Origin: a virus
Lineage: Duplodnaviria; Heunggongvirae; Uroviricota; Caudoviricetes
Length of the DNA stretch: 7,624 bases
Reading direction: 5' to 3' (one strand)
Virus record (IMG/VR): IMGVR_UViG_2671180828_000013
Below the pieces are notes generated by a model. It saw only the letters and a list, made by a program, of their open reading frames with translations. It ran no database searches and had not been told where the DNA came from. Position 1 is the stretch's first letter. Every line of letters begins with the position of its first letter. This document shows positions 1 to 7,624 of the stretch, piece after piece. The position numbers were made by a program, and so were the translations under genes.

Positions 1-585
1 TTACGCACCAGCCTTTTTCTGGGTTACATTTAAATGATTAACCTTAGCTTCACATTCTTCATAAATCTCTCTTACAGTATCATCGGGTAACTCTTGTAGA
101 CTCAATGCTAGTGCTCTTTTGACTCCGCTCAATGAGTGCAGTTTTTGAATATCTGTATCAAGCAAAACGGTTAGTAGTTCGGCCCCTTTTCTGATCAATA
201 AGTTGGACAAAATCTCTTGTTCAGATGAAGTTAGCGAGTCCCACGCCCTCATGATGATGGAATCACTATCATCAATTCTTTGTTTTTTTGTTCTTTTTGT
301 TTGTTCAATTGGTTCTTTTTTCATGCTTGGCTCATCACAATAACCATTGACCAGCCACTCCATAGATACATGTTCTCTTTCTGCAATGTTCTGGAGATGG
401 TGCTTTCTTGGTTGTGGTGGCGGCTGATTGTTTCTCCTTTTGTAGTAGTTCTGCAATGTCTGAACGTTTATTCCCCATGCTCTAGCCGCCTCACTTCTCG
501 ATTTGTAACGCTCTGCAAGACGAAAAATCCGTTCGATCACTGGTTCTTTTCCTTCGTCGAGAAAAGAACTGTTTTTCATGTTCAT
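1..585 (-). CDS. Phage CI-type repressor with N-terminal helix-turn-helix domain
   Basis: 194-aa ORF from ATG at 585-583 (second in-frame ATG at 579-577) to TAA at 3-1. AAGGAA Shine-Dalgarno about 9 nt upstream on the minus strand (plus coords 595-600). N-terminal stretch ERIFRLAERYKSRSEAARAWGINVQTLQNYYKRR ... MEWLVNGY fits the HTH pattern of phage CI-type repressors. Divergent to a Ner-like gene as in a Mu-type immunity region. The ORF-track extension to 714 is AT-rich and low-complexity (NNRTNKRTKSR...) and is treated as non-coding leader. Confidence 0.75.
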   Translation of the reverse strand: MNMKNSSFLDEGKEPVIERIFRLAERYKSRSEAARAWGINVQTLQNYYKRRNNQPPPQPRKHHLQNIAEREHVSMEWLVNGYCDEPSMKKEPIEQTKRTKKQRIDDSDSIIMRAWDSLTSSEQEILSNLLIRKGAELLTVLLDTDIQKLHSLSGVKRALALSLQELPDDTVREIYEECEAKVNHLNVTQKKAGA

Positions 586-752
586 GCTCTCAGGTTCCTT
601 TTTATTTATCTTATTGATATTAATAACAAAAACACCGCAAAGAATAAAAAGAACAAAATACCTTGATTTGGTTCTTTTGTTTGTTCTATTATTTACCCGT
701 ACAGATATCCGCACGAATATCCGCGCGGGTAACTTTTTAGAATAGAGGAAGT
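586..752. promoter_or_regulatory. Divergent switch region between repressor and Ner-like genes; expected to hold operators and both promoters
   Basis: 167-bp AT-rich intergenic region between divergently transcribed regulator genes. Contains a tandem direct repeat ATATCCGC (705-712 and 717-724, 12-bp period), a TTATTGATATTAATAA near-palindrome (about 611-626) and a GTTCTTTTGTTTGTTC motif (671-686). Function is inferred from position only. Confidence 0.5.
663..692 (+). promoter_or_regulatory. Candidate sigma70-type early promoter for the Ner-like gene and downstream operon
   Basis: TTGATT (663-668) as -35, 18-bp spacer, TATTAT (687-692) as -10, about 60 bp upstream of the ATG at 753; GAGG ribosome-binding motif at 745-748. 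Hexamer matching by eye only; alternative -10 candidates exist (e.g. TAGAAT at 738-743). Confidence 0.3.
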
Positions 753-1001
753 ATGAGTAGAAGAGAAGTTTCAGATCACGATTGGCCGCCTGAAATCATC
801 AAGGCGCGCTTACACATGGCTGGCTTATCACTGCGCTCTTTATCTTTAAAGGCTGGTTACAGCAGGGATTCGCTGAAAAGCGTATTACGTACTCCTTGCC
901 GACCGTATCAGCAAATAATTGCTGATGCTCTTGGGGTATCGCCTGAAGAAATCTGGCCCAGTCGATACCAGGTTAAGAGCTATATGAGAAAGGCGTCATG
1001 A
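753..1001 (+). CDS. ner: Ner-like DNA-binding transcriptional regulator (Ner/Nlp family)
   Basis: 82-aa ORF. Sequence DWPPEIIKARLHMAGLSLRSLSLKAGYSRDSLKSVLRTPCRPYQQIIADALGVSPEEIWPSRYQ matches the recalled Ner/Nlp pattern (DWH.ADIIAGL ... LS..S...G......L.NAL.R.WPKGE.IIA.AL...P..IWPSRY). TGA stop at 999-1001 is followed 1 nt later by the next ATG. Confidence 0.85.
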   Translation: MSRREVSDHDWPPEIIKARLHMAGLSLRSLSLKAGYSRDSLKSVLRTPCRPYQQIIADALGVSPEEIWPSRYQVKSYMRKAS

Positions 1002-1002
1002 T

Positions 1003-2421
1003 ATGTATGTCATTGCAAAAGAACTGATTGGCGCGCCCGGAATGCCTGCTACAACAAAAGGTATTCGCCAGGCATTACAACGTTACGTACAAGGGAAAAG
1101 CTGTTGTTCCCGTCGTCGCTCAGGCTCTAAAGCAACTGAATACAGCATCGACTGTTTACCTGAAGTGACGCAGCAGGCATTACGTGAACGCTACGCCCTG
1201 CAACTGATGACTCAAAAAGTCGATGAATCACCGGCTCCAGTGGTGACAAAGGCCAGACGCTCGCCTGCCGTGGTTGATGCGGTGGAGGCATATCGCGGAT
1301 CACCACAACTGATGGTCGAACGCCTTAATGCCCTGACTGAAAACCAGCGCCAGGTGGCTGATGCACGAATCGCGATCGTCAGCGAAGTTCTGAAAGTCGC
1401 GCAACAACCTGGTTTCAGCTGTGCGAAGGCTACCGCCCCTTCGGTGGCAGAAGATACGGCAGCTGCGCTGGAGCAGAAAAGCGGCTCAGCAATGAATCAG
1501 CTGTTTAACACACTTTCAGACGGCTGGACGGTGATTTCAGACGGTCTGCATGATGTACAGGCCATGACCGACACCATCAGCGATAAAATTGATGCGCTGG
1601 AGAATGCCGTTTCAGGGATGGGGATTGTGCAGGATATCAGTGCCTTTACGGCCAGTTTTACTGCCCTGAAAGGGAATGCCGCCGCCCTGATTAATGCGCC
1701 CCGTCGCATGGCTGAATCGCTGGCCGGAATGTTTGCCGTGCTGGCGGGGCTGCCCGGCGATCCTTCCCTGTCGCTGACCGGAAAAGCCGGAACGCCGTCC
1801 GGCAGCCTGACCACAAACCGTGACAGCACGACAGAGCAGGCCATGCCGCAGCTGTACCGCACACTTTCTTCCCTGCGTTACACCCTCAGCGAACAGGATG
1901 ATCCGCAGCGCCTGATTGGTCTGACGCCTGCGGCACAGAACAATATCCGTCTGCTGCGGAGCGTCATGCAGAGTGCAGCCCTGGTGTCGCAGGCGCAGAC
2001 GGTCGGAAAACTGCTGGATCAGGTCATCCGGCAGAATACGACGCACGTTCAGGATACTGACCGTGCGGGCGGACTGGCCTGGCTGGAAAGTTCTGCTGAT
2101 GTGCAGCGTATCAACCGGGATTTGAGCGATGTCATGGAACAACAGGTGCTGGATCTGTCCGCACAGGGCCATACCGGCACCGCCCTTACATTACGTGATG
2201 CAGGGCTTGCGCTGACAGAAGATTTAACCACGCGGAGCGTGCATCTTCCCGGTGCTTTTCAGGTCATGGTGCGAACCACCGAACCGGCACTGGTCACGCT
2301 GTACCGTGCCACCGGTAACAGCCGCCGCTGGCAGTATTTTGTCCGCAGAAACAATATCCCCGATCCGGTTTTTGTTCCGGGTGGCCGCCGCGTGGAGGTG
2401 ATCAGTGAGCAGCAGGATTGA
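1003..2421 (+). CDS. Hybrid ORF: MuA-transposase-like N-terminal DNA-binding domain (about the first 150 aa) continuous with a tail protein at the Mu gp43 (N) position (or tape-measure-derived segment); probable deletion-derived in-frame fusion
   Basis: ATG at 1003, TGA at 2419-2421. N-terminus ...APGMPATTKGIRQAL...SGSKATEYSIDCLPEVTQQAL resembles the recalled MuA N-terminus (...LPGLPKTSAGVIYVA...GVKGGKAIEYNANSLPVEAKAAL), and a following ENQRQVADARIAIV stretch resembles the MuA SDSQRRLAEKWLPAV region. No DDE catalytic-core-like sequence follows; the remainder is Ala/Gly/Ser/Thr/Leu-rich like tail/tape-measure proteins. Its 3' end overlaps the hub gene start by 17 nt, the position of the gene preceding the hub in Mu-like tail modules. 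Confidence 0.55.
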   Translation: MYVIAKELIGAPGMPATTKGIRQALQRYVQGKSCCSRRRSGSKATEYSIDCLPEVTQQALRERYALQLMTQKVDESPAPVVTKARRSPAVVDAVEAYRGSPQLMVERLNALTENQRQVADARIAIVSEVLKVAQQPGFSCAKATAPSVAEDTAAALEQKSGSAMNQLFNTLSDGWTVISDGLHDVQAMTDTISDKIDALENAVSGMGIVQDISAFTASFTALKGNAAALINAPRRMAESLAGMFAVLAGLPGDPSLSLTGKAGTPSGSLTTNRDSTTEQAMPQLYRTLSSLRYTLSEQDDPQRLIGLTPAAQNNIRLLRSVMQSAALVSQAQTVGKLLDQVIRQNTTHVQDTDRAGGLAWLESSADVQRINRDLSDVMEQQVLDLSAQGHTGTALTLRDAGLALTEDLTTRSVHLPGAFQVMVRTTEPALVTLYRATGNSRRWQYFVRRNNIPDPVFVPGGRRVEVISEQQD

Positions 2422-3529
2422 ACTGTATATCGGCGGCAGTATTTTTTCCGGCTGGCTGACGGTCAGCGTCCGTCGCTCGCTGGAGCATCTGGCCGGGTCG
2501 TTTGAACTGGGGCTGATGCTGCCCGGTGAGCGCATCCCCTCAGCCCTGCGGACCGGTCAGCCCCTGACGCTCAGAATTAACGGGCAGACGGTCATCAGTG
2601 GCTGGCTGGATCAGGTCAGTCAGCGGATCAGTGCAACCCGTCATCAGATCAGCATCAGCGGTCGGGATAAAACCGGCGACCTGGTGGACTGTGCCGCCAT
2701 CCATCCCGGCAGCCAGTGGCGCAACCGGACGCTGGCACAGATTGCCGCAGATTTATGTGCGCCCTTCGGGATAGCCGTGCGCTGGCAGGTTAACGACGAC
2801 ACGGCTGCACGCCCCTTCAGCTCTTTTACGCTGGAAAACTCAGAAACCGTGGCGGATGCGCTGACCCGTGCTGCCCGGCATCGCGGGGTGCTGGTGACCA
2901 GTAATGCTGACGGCGATCTGGTGTTCACCCAGGCAGGAAGCCAGCAGACGGACAGACTGGTGCTGGGAGATAACCTGCTTGATGCCGATTACAACACGGA
3001 CTGGCGAGGACGATACAGCGAATACCGTGTCCGGGGACACGGGCGCGGTGGTGGCAAACGGGGAGACAGCGAATCCGCCGCCCGTCTGGCAGCACCTGTG
3101 GGCGTCATCAGTGATGAGCAGATCGGCCGCTACCGGCCGAAAATCATCCTCGCCGATCAACAGACAGACATCACCGGTGCACGGCAGCGTGCCCTGCGTG
3201 AAATGCGCCGTGCGATTGCCCGTTCAGAACGGTTTTCTGCCACCGTGCGTGGCTGGTTCCGGGATGATGGCCGGTTATGGGATGTCAATCTGCTGACCGG
3301 TGTTTCAGCCCTGCGTTTCGGTATAGAACAGACTGAACTGCTGGTCTGTCAGGTGGAGTTTTTACTTGATGAGCATAACGGGGAAGTCACCCGGCTGGTA
3401 CTGGCACCGCGTGACGGCTTTATCGTTCCGGCAGAGCCGGACAGTAAGGGCCGGGGTGGTTCCGGTGACGATGTTGATGCCTTTATTCGCCAGCAGATGA
3501 AAAAACAGGGGATCAGCTTTGATGAATGA
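2405..3529 (+). CDS. Baseplate hub protein (Mu gp44 / P2 gpD late-control-D family)
   Basis: 374-aa ORF with GTG start at 2405 preceded by GGAGG (2394-2398) at 6-nt spacing; overlaps the upstream ORF by 17 nt. Size and sequence character (IELYIGGSIFSGWLTVSVRRSLEHLAGSFELGL ...) fit the gpD/gp44 family; TGA at 3527-3529. Confidence 0.8.
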   Translation: MSSRIELYIGGSIFSGWLTVSVRRSLEHLAGSFELGLMLPGERIPSALRTGQPLTLRINGQTVISGWLDQVSQRISATRHQISISGRDKTGDLVDCAAIHPGSQWRNRTLAQIAADLCAPFGIAVRWQVNDDTAARPFSSFTLENSETVADALTRAARHRGVLVTSNADGDLVFTQAGSQQTDRLVLGDNLLDADYNTDWRGRYSEYRVRGHGRGGGKRGDSESAARLAAPVGVISDEQIGRYRPKIILADQQTDITGARQRALREMRRAIARSERFSATVRGWFRDDGRLWDVNLLTGVSALRFGIEQTELLVCQVEFLLDEHNGEVTRLVLAPRDGFIVPAEPDSKGRGGSGDDVDAFIRQQMKKQGISFDE

Positions 3530-4133
3530 TGAAGTGTTCAGCCGCCTGATTGCCCCGGTAACGCGCGGTATTCGCCTGTTGTTTGGCCGGGGCGTTCTGA
3601 CCGGCACACATGACGAACTGAAAATGCAGAATGTGCAGCTCACCGGCATGGACGGCGAAACCTTTGATGATGTGGAGCGTCCCCAGCAGTACGGGCAGAT
3701 CAGCGTTCCCCTGCCGGGTGCGGAAACCTTTTTTGCCTGTCTGGGCGGACAGCGGGATCAGACTGTGGTGCTTGTGGTGGAAGACCGGCGCAGCCGCCCG
3801 ACCGGACTCACAGCCGGAGATACGGGGGTGTATCACCATGAGGGGCACCGGATACGGTTAACAAAGGATGGCCGCATTATTGTGACATGCAAAATGCTGG
3901 AGATTTACGCCGACGAGGGGATGCGGGTGGATACGCCGGAAGCCACCTTTACGGGCAATGTGACGGTGGATAAGAACCTGCATGTTAAGGGTAATTTCGC
4001 GCTTGAGGGTACGGGGAAATCTCAGGGACTGTTCACAATGTCGGATGCCGTTATTGCAGGGATACGGTATTCCGGCCATGTGCATCATGATAACGGCGAA
4101 GGCAGTAAGACAGGAGTGCCGGAGAATGGCTGA
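3522..4133 (+). CDS. Baseplate spike / baseplate assembly protein V-like (Mu gp45 family)
   Basis: ATG at 3522 (the ORF track opens at an in-frame TTG at 3519) overlapping the hub gene stop; about 203 aa, consistent with gp45/gpV-type proteins. Position directly after the hub gene. TGA at 4131-4133 overlaps the next start. Confidence 0.75.
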   Translation: MNDEVFSRLIAPVTRGIRLLFGRGVLTGTHDELKMQNVQLTGMDGETFDDVERPQQYGQISVPLPGAETFFACLGGQRDQTVVLVVEDRRSRPTGLTAGDTGVYHHEGHRIRLTKDGRIIVTCKMLEIYADEGMRVDTPEATFTGNVTVDKNLHVKGNFALEGTGKSQGLFTMSDAVIAGIRYSGHVHHDNGEGSKTGVPENG

Positions 4134-4563
4134 TATTGCAATTGTGTGGGATCAGGGATGCGGTTCGCTGCAACTGAACGGTGCCGACCTGCTGACGGAT
4201 GACAGTCTGCTGACGGCCGTTCTGATTTCGCTGTTTACTGACCGCCGGGCGCTGGCATCGGATGAAATCCCTGACGGTACGCGCGACCGCCGGGGATGGT
4301 GGGGAGACAGTTTTCGCCCGCGCCCCATTGGCTCCCGTCTGTGGCTTCTCAGCCGGGAAAAAACGCTGGCCTCGGTGATAAGCCGTGCCCGTGCTTACGC
4401 GGATGAGGCGCTGGGCTGGCTCAGTCAGGATGGCGTGGCGTCATCCGTGGTCTGTCATGCAGAACGTGTGGGACACGCGCGGCTGGCGCTTTCGGTGCGC
4501 ATAACCCTGCCTGATGGTTCAGTGAGGCCCATGATTTTTTATGCTGATCTTAAGGGGGAGTAA
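4126..4563 (+). CDS. GP46 / gp25-like (GPW family) baseplate wedge protein
   Basis: Start chosen at internal ATG 4126 (MADIAIVWDQGCG...), with AGGAG at 4112-4116 and ATGGCTGA overlap with the preceding stop. The upstream part of the 3982 ORF is out-of-frame overlap with the spike gene. 145 aa, typical for this family; TAA at 4561-4563. Confidence 0.8.
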   Translation: MADIAIVWDQGCGSLQLNGADLLTDDSLLTAVLISLFTDRRALASDEIPDGTRDRRGWWGDSFRPRPIGSRLWLLSREKTLASVISRARAYADEALGWLSQDGVASSVVCHAERVGHARLALSVRITLPDGSVRPMIFYADLKGE

Positions 4564-5645
4564 TGCCTTATCAGCCTTTACCGCTGGCACAGTTAATCAC
4601 GCAGACACAGCAGGATATCAGCCAGCGCCTGCCCGGCTCGCAGCCGGGTGTGAATGAAACCACCCTGAATGCCATTGCTTACGCTCAGGCAGGGTTATCT
4701 GCTCAGGAGCATGAGCATCTGGCCTGGATTGCGCGTCAGATCATCCCGACCGAAGCCGATGAAGCCGAACTGCTGAAACACTGTGCATTCTGGGGCGTCA
4801 TGCGTAAGCCTGCCTCTCGGGGGGACGGGCCGGTTCAGCTGATGCTGACCACGGATGCGGGGATCAAGGAAGGTGTGCTTCTCCAGCGAAGTGATGGCGT
4901 GGTTTACCGTATCACCACCTCCCTGACCGGTAAGGCCGGTACGCTGAATGTCAGTGTGGAAGCCGAAAGTGCCGGTCGTGCGGGGAATGCCCCGGCAGGG
5001 ACAAAACTGACATTTATCACACCGCAGGCGGGGATCAACCAGACGGCCACGGTGACCGGAACGGGGATCACCGGTGGTGCGGATGTGGAAACCGTGCCGG
5101 AGCTGCTTTCCCGTCTGGTTTTCCGGGTGCAGAATCCACCGTCCGGCGGCACGCAGTATGATTTTGAACGCTGGGCGCGTGAAGTGCCGGGCGTGACGCG
5201 GGCATGGTGCCGCCCGGAATGGCCGCAGGCGGGCAGCGTGGGGGTAACGTTTGTTCAGGATAATAACCCGGATATTTTCCCCGGTGACGGTGATGTTCAG
5301 CGGGTGGCGGATTATATCCGCAGTCATGATGATCCGGCGACCGGCCAGCCTGTCGGACAGCCTCTGGGGCCGACGGTGACCGTGTTTAAACTGACCAATA
5401 AGCCGGTGCCCTTCAGCATCAGGATCATCCCGAAAACACCGGAGAATCAGGCGGCCGTAAAACAGGCGCTGACCGACCTGTTGTATAACGAATCCCGGCC
5501 CGGCGGTCTGGTTCTGCCGTCGTCTTTCTGGCGGGCGGTGGCAGGGGTGAAAAATCTGGAGGATTTTGAAGTGCGCAGTCCGCTGACGTCAGTTCAGGCG
5601 GGAGACAGTGAGCTGCTGACGGTAGGAGAAATCACATGGCTGTAA
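4563..5645 (+). CDS. Baseplate J-like protein (Mu gp47 family)
   Basis: 360-aa ORF; ATG at 4563 in a TAATG overlap with the previous stop; GGGGGAG Shine-Dalgarno at 4554-4560. Size and position after the gp25-like gene fit baseplate J. Confidence 0.85.
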   Translation: MPYQPLPLAQLITQTQQDISQRLPGSQPGVNETTLNAIAYAQAGLSAQEHEHLAWIARQIIPTEADEAELLKHCAFWGVMRKPASRGDGPVQLMLTTDAGIKEGVLLQRSDGVVYRITTSLTGKAGTLNVSVEAESAGRAGNAPAGTKLTFITPQAGINQTATVTGTGITGGADVETVPELLSRLVFRVQNPPSGGTQYDFERWAREVPGVTRAWCRPEWPQAGSVGVTFVQDNNPDIFPGDGDVQRVADYIRSHDDPATGQPVGQPLGPTVTVFKLTNKPVPFSIRIIPKTPENQAAVKQALTDLLYNESRPGGLVLPSSFWRAVAGVKNLEDFEVRSPLTSVQAGDSELLTVGEITWL

Positions 5646-6196
5646 CCCTGACCCCGCATCAGCGCGCCCTGTTGCAGTTACTGCCTGACGGGCTGGCATG
5701 GGACAAGCGTCCGTCATCCGTACTGGCATCATTATGTCTGGGCCTCAGTCATTCGACAGCGCGTGTATCCTGGACGGGTAAACAGCTGCTTGCCGAGCGT
5801 TTCCCTGACACGTCGCGCCTGCTGCTGGAAGACTGGGAGCGTTATCTCGGGCTTCCCGAGTGTGATATGGCCGGAGCCACCCTCACGGAGCGACAGCGTT
5901 ATGCCGGAAATAAATACCGGATGAAGCCCTCGCTGAACCGTGAATTTTATATCCGGTTTGCGGCGGAGTTTGGTTATCAGATTGACATTCAGCCCTCACC
6001 GGATTCGCAGTGGGTCAGTATTGTCACGATTAACAGTGAAACCGGCTACCGGAATATGAATGTGCTGGATGATATTCTCACGCCGCTGCGTATTTATGAA
6101 GGCGGTGCGCTGGAATGTATTCTGAACCGTTATAAGCCTGCATGGCAGACGTTTATTTACGTTTATGCAAACAGCCATGAAGAGGAGACTATTTAA
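5636..6196 (+). CDS. Mu gp48-like baseplate/tail protein (YmfQ / DUF2313 family)
   Basis: 186-aa ORF; ATG at 5636 overlapping the baseplate J stop (TAA 5643-5645); AGGAG at 5624-5628. N-terminus [26 protein letters not shown] and the size fit the gp48/YmfQ family that follows baseplate J in Mu-like modules. Confidence 0.8.
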
Positions 6197-7077
6197 TGTT
6201 TCATGTTGATAATAATTCCGGCGTGGCGAATATGCCTGCGCTGGCACCGGCGCAGAGTAATACCACAACCTGGTTTACCGAAGGTGACGGACAAAAAGGT
6301 ATCAGCTGGATTGGTCAGGACTGGCTGAATATTCTCCAGGCCGAACTGCTGAATATTCTGGCTGAAGCCAGTATTCAGCCGGATAAGGCGCAGTTAAACC
6401 AGCTTACGCTGTCCATTAAAGCCATTATCGCTGCGAATGCCTTTTCCCGGAAAAATAACCTGAAAGAAATTGCTGATGCCGGTGCGGAGGCCCAGCGTCT
6501 GGCCCGTGGTTATCTTGGTCTGGGGACGCTTGCCACAAAAAACAGTCTTGGTCCCGGTGACGTTAATGCCCTGGCGAAGGATCAGAATCTCGCCGACCTG
6601 GAGAATAAGGGAACCGCCCGTAATAATCTGGATGTTTACAGCAAAAGCGAAGGTGATAACCGTTACCTGCGCAGGGAGCAGAACGGCGCAGACATTCCGG
6701 ATAAAGGGGCTTTTATCGATAACGTCGGTTTACGGGAAACGGTAAACAGGGCGGCGAATGCCCTGCCATCGGACGGCACCGCCGTTGCCGCGAACAGGCT
6801 GGCAAATGCCCACACAATTAATGGTGTTCCCTTTGACGGGACGCAGGATATCACTATCTCATCAGGAACAGTAACCGCCATAAGACTGGGGTCGGTGACC
6901 GCACATATGCCCGGAACATGGGAAAGCTGGGATCTGAATCTGGGGGGCGGCAATGTTCTTACCGGAATTAAAGTACAGGATGTCGGTAAGAATACGGCAG
7001 ATAACGTCGGCGGCGTGTATTACCGGCCGTTGCAGTATCTGTTAAATGGAGCATGGGTGACGGCTGCAAGTATATAA
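6196..7077 (+). CDS. Tail fibre protein (Mu S-like: constant N-terminal part plus a short variable C-terminal part)
   Basis: 293-aa ORF; ATG at 6196 in a TAATG overlap; GAGGAG at 6183-6188. N-terminus [33 protein letters not shown]...[16 protein letters not shown] resembles conserved tail fibre N-terminal domains. Contains a gix-like site at codons about 173-181. TAA at 7075-7077. Confidence 0.8.
6713..6738. other. gix/hix-like crossover site for a Gin/Hin/Pin/Cin-family serine DNA invertase
   Basis: TTATCGATAACGTCGGTTTACGGGAA matches the recalled Mu gix sequence TTATCCAAAACCTCGGTTTACAGGAA at 22 of 26 positions (13 of 14 in the right half). It lies about 175 codons into the tail fibre gene, where the constant/variable boundary sits in Mu S. 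A convergent tail fibre assembly gene follows downstream. Confidence 0.55.
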
Positions 7078-7085
7078 TGATATTC

Positions 7086-7105
7086 AGAAGGCCTTCCGGC
7101 CTTCT
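7086..7105 (+). terminator. Hairpin terminator between convergent tail fibre and tail fibre assembly genes
   Basis: Perfect 8-bp inverted repeat AGAAGGCC (7086-7093) / GGCCTTCT (7098-7105) with TTCC loop, followed by TTATT on the plus strand. Sits in the 31-bp gap between the stops at 7077 and 7109. Confidence 0.6.
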
Positions 7106-7108
7106 TTA

Positions 7109-7624
7109 TTACTGTGGCTGCTCAGGCCATTTAATGGCGTTAAATTCAGCTTCTGTTTTAATGGCGGGTAGTTCCATTTTCTTCACCTGACTGATGTATG
7201 CCATCCATTGGGTAAGTGCTGCTCTGTCTTCATCGCTGATGGTGCCCAGTTGTAGCTCCGTTCTCCAGTCATTAATTTTTTCATATGCCTGATTAAGATA
7301 TGACTGGCGCATTGCTTCCAGTTTTCTTGCGTAGTTAACCGGAATACGGGAGATTATGCCATTATCAAACTTCCAGTTTCCTGAAATATCCGTGCCTTCA
7401 GGGAGTTCATCGACCTCAACCACAGAAAACCCCGCAGGATACAGCGCCGAGGCGTCCTGTGATATTGAGCAGATAACGCCGCTGTCAGGTGTTATGCAAA
7501 GTTTATATTTTTTGGTGAATAATGGCAGGGATTCGTAGAAATCCTTACCATCTTCACTCTGGAAATACTGAACATTATTACCATATGGCATATTTTCAGG
7601 ATAATAACGGGTTATATTTTTTAG
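7109..7624 (-). CDS. Tail fibre assembly protein (Mu U / U'-type chaperone), 5'-partial at the window edge
   Basis: Stop TAA at 7111-7109 (minus). C-terminus LGTISDEDRAALTQWMAYISQVKK ... KWPEQPQ is the classic tail fibre assembly motif, and YFQSEDGKDFYE ... GVICSI ... SGNWKFDNGI matches recalled Mu U features. The minus-strand frame stays open from the in-window ATG (7591-7589) to the window end (LKNITRYYPEN upstream), so the true start probably lies just beyond 7624. Confidence 0.8.
   Translation of the reverse strand, partial: LKNITRYYPENMPYGNNVQYFQSEDGKDFYESLPLFTKKYKLCITPDSGVICSISQDASALYPAGFSVVEVDELPEGTDISGNWKFDNGIISRIPVNYARKLEAMRQSYLNQAYEKINDWRTELQLGTISDEDRAALTQWMAYISQVKKMELPAIKTEAEFNAIKWPEQPQ

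Follow-up and report, generated by a model that had tools for sequence, protein, structure and literature searches.

The 26-bp sequence at positions 6713–6738 of the window, the 7,624-nucleotide stretch of DNA analyzed here, is most probably the left one of two recombination sites that bound a Gin-type invertible segment of approximately 1.3 kb in a Mu-like Escherichia coli prophage. We assign this reading a probability of about 0.93. Natural inversions that map to the site, matching centers of the two sites, homology of the adjacent recombinase to Gin, and in-frame fusions in both orientations were all observed. The system belongs to the Gin/gix systems of the Mu G-segment type, and every testable recombination-related feature that defines this type was found in it. 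The original prediction had described a G-segment-type invertible switch from its left half. A second site, an invertase gene, and both orientations are indeed present in loci that are near-identical to the window, and an effect on host range would be expected by analogy. The coordinates of the switch and of the surrounding prophage genes are shown in Table 1.

Table 1 Features of the invertible segment and of the prophage around it. Positions are those of the window; L001 is the reference relative, a locus of E. coli JE86-ST05, and window position equals L001 position minus 3401.
Feature	Position	Strand	Remarks
Prophage left end	1–1435		Repressor-like gene (−), Ner-like gene (753–1001), and, from 1003, transposase N-terminus (Mu DNA-binding domain)
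gp44/GpP-like hub	2405–3529	+	Pfam
gp45 spike	3519–4133	+	Pfam
GP46	3982–4563	+	Pfam
Baseplate_J	4563–5645	+	Pfam
Mu Gp48	5636–6196	+	Pfam
Tail fiber gene, Mu S homologue, 293 aa	6196–7077	+	Constant part to ~6724; from the crossover site onward, variable tip Sv, up to the stop codon
Left 26-bp crossover site, gix-like	6713–6738		TTATCGATAACGTCGGTTTACGGGAA = TTATCGATAACG-TC-GGTTTACGGGAA
Left arm of the long inverted repeat	6718–6866		Blocks 6718–6803 and 6817–6866; shared first ~45 codons of both tips
Central dinucleotide TC	6725–6726		Right-site center GA on + is TC inverted; putative point of staggered cleavage and strand exchange
37 bp identical in both arms	6725–6761		Exchange interval in the window-type prophage; arm mismatches at 6724 and 6762
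In-window part of the invertible segment	6727–7624		Whole segment 1,315 bp, ending at window-equivalent 8041
Inner continuation of the inverted repeat	6739–6750	+	ACGGTAAACAGG; codes for part of ETVNRA; same 12-mer after Mu gixL
G+C-rich hairpin	7086–7105 (L001 10487–10506)		Between fiber tip and assembly gene; 8-pair stem AGAAGGCCTTCCGGCCTTCT, then TTATT; from a terminator scan
Tail fiber assembly (chaperone) gene	7109–7624	−	Convergent; first 6 codons past the window edge; co-oriented with S'v
Silent tip S'v fragment, 124 codons	L001 11083–11457	−	Annotated as a truncated pseudogene
Right crossover site	Window-equivalent 8030–8055 (L001 11431–11456)		TTCCCGTAAACCGAGGTTTTCAGGAA; inverted; center GA on + is TC on the other strand
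Invertase gene, 190 codons	Window-equivalent 8121–8693	+	Resolvase and HTH_7 domains; 74% identical to Mu Gin

The left site was compared with gix of the actual Mu genome (AF083977). Both Mu sites (TTATCCAAAACCTCGGTTTACAGGAA) agree with it at 22 of 26 positions, so that the number given in the original prediction holds, and the runner-up match anywhere in the window, on either strand, reached 16 of 26. The number of gix matches of at least 22/26 expected by chance in the window is 4.3e-6 (binomial), and the best match in 200 shuffled windows never exceeded 19. The site covers codons 173–181 of the 293-codon fiber ORF in the same reading frame as Mu gix in S. Its central TC lies in codon 177, and the G-segment boundary of Mu is at codon 170 of S, in keeping with the proposal that the site stands about 175 codons into the gene, at the constant/variable junction of Mu S. 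The fiber protein of the window and Mu S align through the site, where the Mu S stretch is FIQNLGLQETVNRA.

The 12 bases directly inside the left site had been taken for a further inverted half-site, and this part of the prediction did not stand. They are conserved coding sequence: Mu gixL is directly followed by the same 12-mer, and the arm of gixR is followed by ACGGTAAATCAG. Because the same bases follow gixL, the stretch belongs to the Mu inverted repeat, as its inner portion, and is not a separate half-site. At the equivalent position in loci of the type of the Mu-like prophage Sp18 (Sp18-type), the two arms are unlike each other (ACTGTAAACAGG versus ACGGTAAATAAG) and these loci still invert, which indicates that identity of the arms at this motif is not required for inversion. 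The candidate third half-site was rejected on three grounds. Its reverse complement fits only 6 of the 10 aligned positions of a half-site consensus built from the sites found here and Mu gix, it is coding sequence in common with Mu, and the arms vary there in relatives that invert.

The gene that contains the left site is a homologue of the tail fiber gene S of Mu. Residues 1–198 share 47% identity with Mu S, and a PDB sequence search with the fiber protein gave the Mu tail fiber S structures (5YVQ and 8JU3) as the best matches, with E values of 1e-45 to 1e-46. PHROG 1833 (tail fiber) matched at 4e-141, while Pfam searches with the fiber protein and the S'v fragment returned no family. The fiber ORFs of the two orientations encode 293 aa (with Sv) and 296 aa (with S'v), have the first 177 codons in common, and both cover PHROG 1833 over its full length. 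The Sv and S'v tips are 43% identical to each other and have homologues in the C-terminal domains of fibers of Mu (S), P1, and the P2 type. In the RefSeq annotation of the JE86-ST05 locus, the expressed fiber (L001 9597–10478) is called a "hypothetical protein", and the silent tip (L001 11083–11457) is called an incomplete "phage tail protein" pseudogene. These two annotated items are alternative ends of one switchable gene.

The source contig (CDQN01000133.1 of assembly GCA_000938575.1) stops one base past the window (position 15798 of locus L010 is window position 7624 + 1), and for this reason we infer the second site and the invertase of the source genome from its relatives. The JE86-ST05 locus is 99.9% identical to positions 5600–7624 of the window, and several complete E. 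coli chromosomes have loci that share 99.9% identity with the last 2 kb of the window. The window orientation is present at 98.5–100% identity in this region in 18 E. coli genomes, with an inverted second site approximately 0.4 kb past the window edge and then a Gin-like gene. In the JE86-ST05 locus, the fiber gene is followed by the assembly gene, the S'v fragment, the inverted second site, and the gene of a 190-aa recombinase. The right site matches Mu gix at 21 of 26 positions, and its inner half is exactly that of the left site. It is located in non-coding DNA, 65 bp upstream of the invertase gene. Both the inverted second site and a gin/pin/cin-like invertase gene had been predicted to lie beyond the right edge, and this is where they are found in the near-identical loci. 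A scan of a 20-kb related locus with the half-site consensus detected these two crossover sites and no others, and the switch is therefore a simple two-site system and not a multiple-inversion system.

The recombinase is an orthologue of Gin. In the relatives, Pfam detected the Resolvase (1.6e-51) and HTH_7 (4.9e-15) domains in it. The protein aligns with Mu Gin at 74% identity without gaps, and the GYxRVSTNDQ motif and Ser9 are kept. In the PDB, it is matched best by the Gin structures 4M6F and 3UJ3 (E 1e-88), with resolvases far behind, and the DNA-binding domain of Hin (1HCR) matches residues 138–183. The protein also keeps K46, R47, K50 and Q150, R153, L154 (Gin numbering, from the gap-free alignment with Gin), and the residue numbering of Hin is offset from that of Gin by one. 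The basic residues at positions 47, 48, and 51 of Hin, together with Q151, R154, and L155, are described as uniquely conserved in Fis/enhancer-dependent invertases and contact Fis and the enhancer (McLean et al.; PMC3798978). At the DNA level, the 5' 330 nt of the invertase gene shows 72% identity to Mu gin. Cores of the form G-N13-C are common; two conserved candidates within the gene are centered at nt 29 and nt 78, and approximately 107 bp separates the former from the center of the right site. By analogy with the known enzymes, inversion probably depends on Fis and an enhancer.

The strongest competing explanation concerns the source genome itself. The site there could be a locked relic, S'v, the second site, and the invertase having been deleted and the 26 bp surviving as fiber coding sequence. 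Six related E. coli loci (M1, M3, M18, CI5, S1-CAM-01-A, and JE86-ST02) do end just past the assembly gene and are devoid of S'v, the right site, and the invertase; moreover, the source contig is cut off 6 codons short of the assembly gene start, and the prophage is already a deletion remnant. However, these six loci are only 94–97% identical to the window, whereas all relatives with at least 99.5% identity to window positions 1431–7624 have the complete right half with the recombinase, and the end of a short-read draft contig is weak evidence of a deletion. We consider such a relic unlikely. Judging from the sequences of its closest relatives, the source genome probably still keeps the right-hand site and the invertase.

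Inversion of the segment is documented in natural isolates. When the 1,315 bp from one site center to the other is inverted in silico, the fiber ORF stays open, with 296 codons and a different set of last ~117 residues. The flipped sequence was found as one aligned piece in real genomes, with 100.0% identity in DLI.5a and TOE17 (2,000 bp aligned), and also in NCCP 13983 (99.8%) and FORC_043 (99.7%). Over 16,000 bp, NCCP 13983 and FORC_069 show 0 differences once the 1,315 bp is flipped. These two are Korean isolates of near-equal genome size, with the prophage inserted in a fimbrial usher gene that is the same in both. The expectation that both orientations exist is thus borne out by a strain pair that differs in this region by the inversion only. 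DLI.5a, TOE17, and SMN197SH3 each harbor two copies of the prophage in opposite orientations. The two copies of DLI.5a (L003 and L004) are differently deleted and occupy separate chromosomal sites, and the recombinase is annotated as frameshifted in both.

Orientations were counted by searching complete E. coli genomes with L001 9801–11800 and L007 2400–4600, each in both orientations. The chaperone-antisense orientation, which is that of the window and in which the assembly gene runs against late transcription, prevails over the opposite one by 19 to 5 in the window type and by 182 to 24 genomes in the Sp18 type, counts that are inflated by clonal relatedness. One copy departs from the pattern of matching centers: the right site of E. 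coli 13E0780 (approximately positions 2090–2115 of locus L011) has the center TT instead of TC (ATCCCTGAAACCTTGGTTTACGGGAT in the inverted orientation). Mismatched site centers are expected to block productive inversion (principle described in PMC1904230), and the 13E0780 copy may be locked.

The position of the exchange was delimited from sequence markers in the arms. In the window type, the arms are mismatched at 6724 and 6762, and the marker at 6762 moves with the segment in NCCP 13983 relative to FORC_069. The exchange is therefore confined to the 37 bp that is identical in both arms, which starts at the central TC. The Sp18-type arms are identical over only 13 bp, TCGGTTTACGGGA, corresponding to site positions 13–25 and including the central TC, and the flanking markers outside these 13 bp stay in place while those inside move. 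The exchange thus takes place within 13 bp, which is too short for RecA-dependent recombination and indicates site-specific exchange at the predicted site.

These intervals bear directly on the possibility that RecA-dependent homologous recombination between the ~150-bp inverted repeats inverts the segment, the gix-like sequence being incidental. A repeat search of the JE86-ST05 locus gave two arm pairs, I1 of 86 nt at 93% identity and I2 of 50 nt at 84% identity, so that the window-type arms offer a substrate for such a process, and the window-type exchange is narrowed only to the 37-bp identical stretch. Against this, both orientations are common in the Sp18 type even though its arms share only 13 bp. 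In addition, the three window-type flips that were examined (DLI.5a, TOE17, and NCCP 13983) exchanged in the interval next to the site center and none in the neighboring 32-bp identical stretch, and an orthologue of Gin is encoded next door. Homologous recombination is accordingly a very improbable source of the inversions. A chance match to gix, or mere common ancestry of fiber coding sequence with no recombination function anywhere, is refuted by the expected number of matches (4e-6), by the inverted partner with a matching center in non-coding DNA before the invertase gene, and by the exact center-to-center inversions in nature, although the site does lie within a protein segment that is conserved with Mu S and coding constraint explains part of the DNA similarity.

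For site-specific inversion by the Gin-like enzyme, the following course is proposed. The small serine invertase encoded just to the right of the segment would bind the left site and its inverted partner. Synapsis would presumably occur in an invertasome with Fis and an enhancer, as for Gin and Hin, the 5' part of the invertase gene being the presumed location of this enhancer. At each site, the enzyme would make a cut staggered by 2 nt at the central TC, and one half of the complex would turn by 180 degrees before religation, the shared central dinucleotide allowing the 2-nt overhangs to pair after the turn. Such an inversion would exchange the last ~117 codons of the fiber, giving the Sv tip and a 293-aa protein in the window orientation and the S'v tip and a 296-aa protein in the other. 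In the S'v orientation, the sole assembly gene would also be placed downstream of the fiber in the sense direction. The expected outcome is two particle types that differ in receptor specificity, as in Mu, and the two tips may accordingly confer different host ranges.

The assembly gene, of which there is only one, sets this segment apart from that of Mu. It is convergent with the fiber gene, as the original prediction had it, and its identity as a tail fiber assembly gene agrees with matches to Pfam Caudo_TAP (4.8e-19) and PHROG 136 (4.7e-56). The Sv stop codon is followed by 31 nt with the hairpin before the assembly gene, and the hairpin is probably a terminator for both transcription units. 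The segment contains no second assembly gene. In the flipped orientation, the assembly gene is located 51 nt after S'v and has an AGGAGG ribosome-binding site. The same arrangement, one assembly gene for two tips, is seen in window positions 7078–7624, L001 10479–11457, L007 2297–4214, and L014 1104–3031. A sigma-70 scan of L001 9500–12200 gave no promoter candidate on the minus strand from which the assembly gene could be expressed in the window orientation, and its hits in total did not outnumber those in shuffled sequences. Among phage proteins, tail2 of Rac-SA53 is the nearest homologue of the assembly protein (49–53% identical). The Rac-SA53 assembly gene lies directly behind a fixed fiber, and the tip of this fiber shares 65% identity with the one Sp18 tip for which no chaperone is encoded in cis. 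It is conceivable, although we hold it to be rather doubtful, that the switch does more than swap self-contained tip/chaperone cassettes: it might toggle the supply of the chaperone, or one chaperone might serve both tips via an unrecognized promoter, or chaperones of other prophages might act in trans. If inversion toggles the chaperone supply, the competence for fiber assembly would switch as well. The single-chaperone layout bears on how tail fiber chaperones are shared.

The window represents a prophage remnant. Its right two-thirds constitutes a Mu-type baseplate and fiber module on the + strand, and positions 1–1435 are the left end of the prophage (Table 1). Window positions 1431–7624 belong to the late region, which in NZ_OZ547136.1 lies approximately 25.6 kb from the left-end part, and this distance indicates that the window prophage has a large internal deletion. 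The two parts meet with a 5-bp overlap at 1431–1435. The ORF at 1003–2421 across this junction is a 472-aa in-frame fusion of the transposase N-terminus and the C-terminal part of the DNA-circularization protein, and the head, sheath, tube, and tape-measure genes are among the deleted material. The junction was absent from complete E. coli RefSeq genomes, GTDB representatives, and JGI metagenome contigs, searches that included an exact 40-mer search. An Rfam search of the window at the gathering threshold detected no structured RNAs. In the window genome, the switch belongs to a defective remnant and cannot alter the host range of a self-sufficient phage. Pin is likewise encoded in a defective remnant, e14 of E. 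coli K-12.

The likeness to the Mu G segment covers the two sites (22/26 and 21/26 matches to gix, the left one in the same codons and frame of S), the location of the right site just upstream of the invertase gene, and the invertase itself, which is 74% identical to Gin. It extends to the baseplate order of gp44, gp45, gp46, gp47, and gp48, followed by S, and to com/mom downstream. The two systems differ in size: the segment is 3 kb in Mu and 1.3 kb here, and the tips are longer than 300 aa in Mu and approximately 117–120 aa here. Mu has U and U' (as S-U and S'-U'), whereas a single assembly gene is found here; this is a feature of the gene content of Mu and not of the recombination mechanism. 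Unlike in Mu, the repeat arms reach approximately 150 bp into the segment because both tips share their first ~45 codons, and four extra genes, including that of a 684-aa DUF6645/SASA-domain protein, are present between the invertase gene and com/mom.

The closest counterpart of the switch is the invertible host-specificity region that was noted for the Mu-like prophage Sp18 of E. coli O157:H7 Sakai (PMC2669165). Both have a constant fiber part, site, tip, single assembly gene, inverted second tip, site, invertase gene, and DUF6645 gene in this order, the left sites are identical at 25 of 26 positions, and both orientations occur in genomes. The nucleotide identity over this region is approximately 85%, and the alleles differ, with 61% identity between the assembly proteins and 47–56% between the tips. 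The arms are identical over 13 bp in the Sp18 type and 37 bp in the window type, and the invertase has 186 aa in the Sp18 type versus 190 aa.

The C segment of P1 with Cin, the P segment of e14 with Pin, the H segment of Salmonella with Hin, and Min of p15B are further systems in which Fis/enhancer-dependent serine invertases act on 26-bp sites with a 2-bp crossover. Those of P1, e14, and p15B switch the C-termini of tail fibers. At the sequence level, the comparison with these systems covered the PDB matches. Hin switches a promoter and not a fiber gene as here. The p15B system, with six sites and multiple inversions, differs from the two-site switch in this respect. The system described here belongs to a well-known kind and leaves the knowledge of invertases unchanged. 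It does provide clean evidence, from nature, that site-specific inversion takes place at the bases that were predicted, in the form of a strain pair that differs by the flip only and an exchange interval of 13 bp, and it is a case in which a classic phage host-range switch was correctly recognized from half of the switch by sequence alone. The switch is carried by many E. coli genomes, O157 included.

The 684-aa protein is encoded directly after the invertase gene and before com/mom in the JE86-ST05 locus (L001 12180–14234; window-equivalent ~8779–10833). It has a SASA domain, which is sialate O-acetylesterase-like, and DUF6645 at its C-terminus, and it matches PHROG 143, a family of unknown function, with an E value of 1.7e-296. 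Mu has no counterpart of it at this position. In M3 (L009 3297–5036) and the other relatives of its kind, the DUF6645 gene directly follows the assembly gene, the fiber is frozen in the window orientation, and the chaperone gene is antisense to it.
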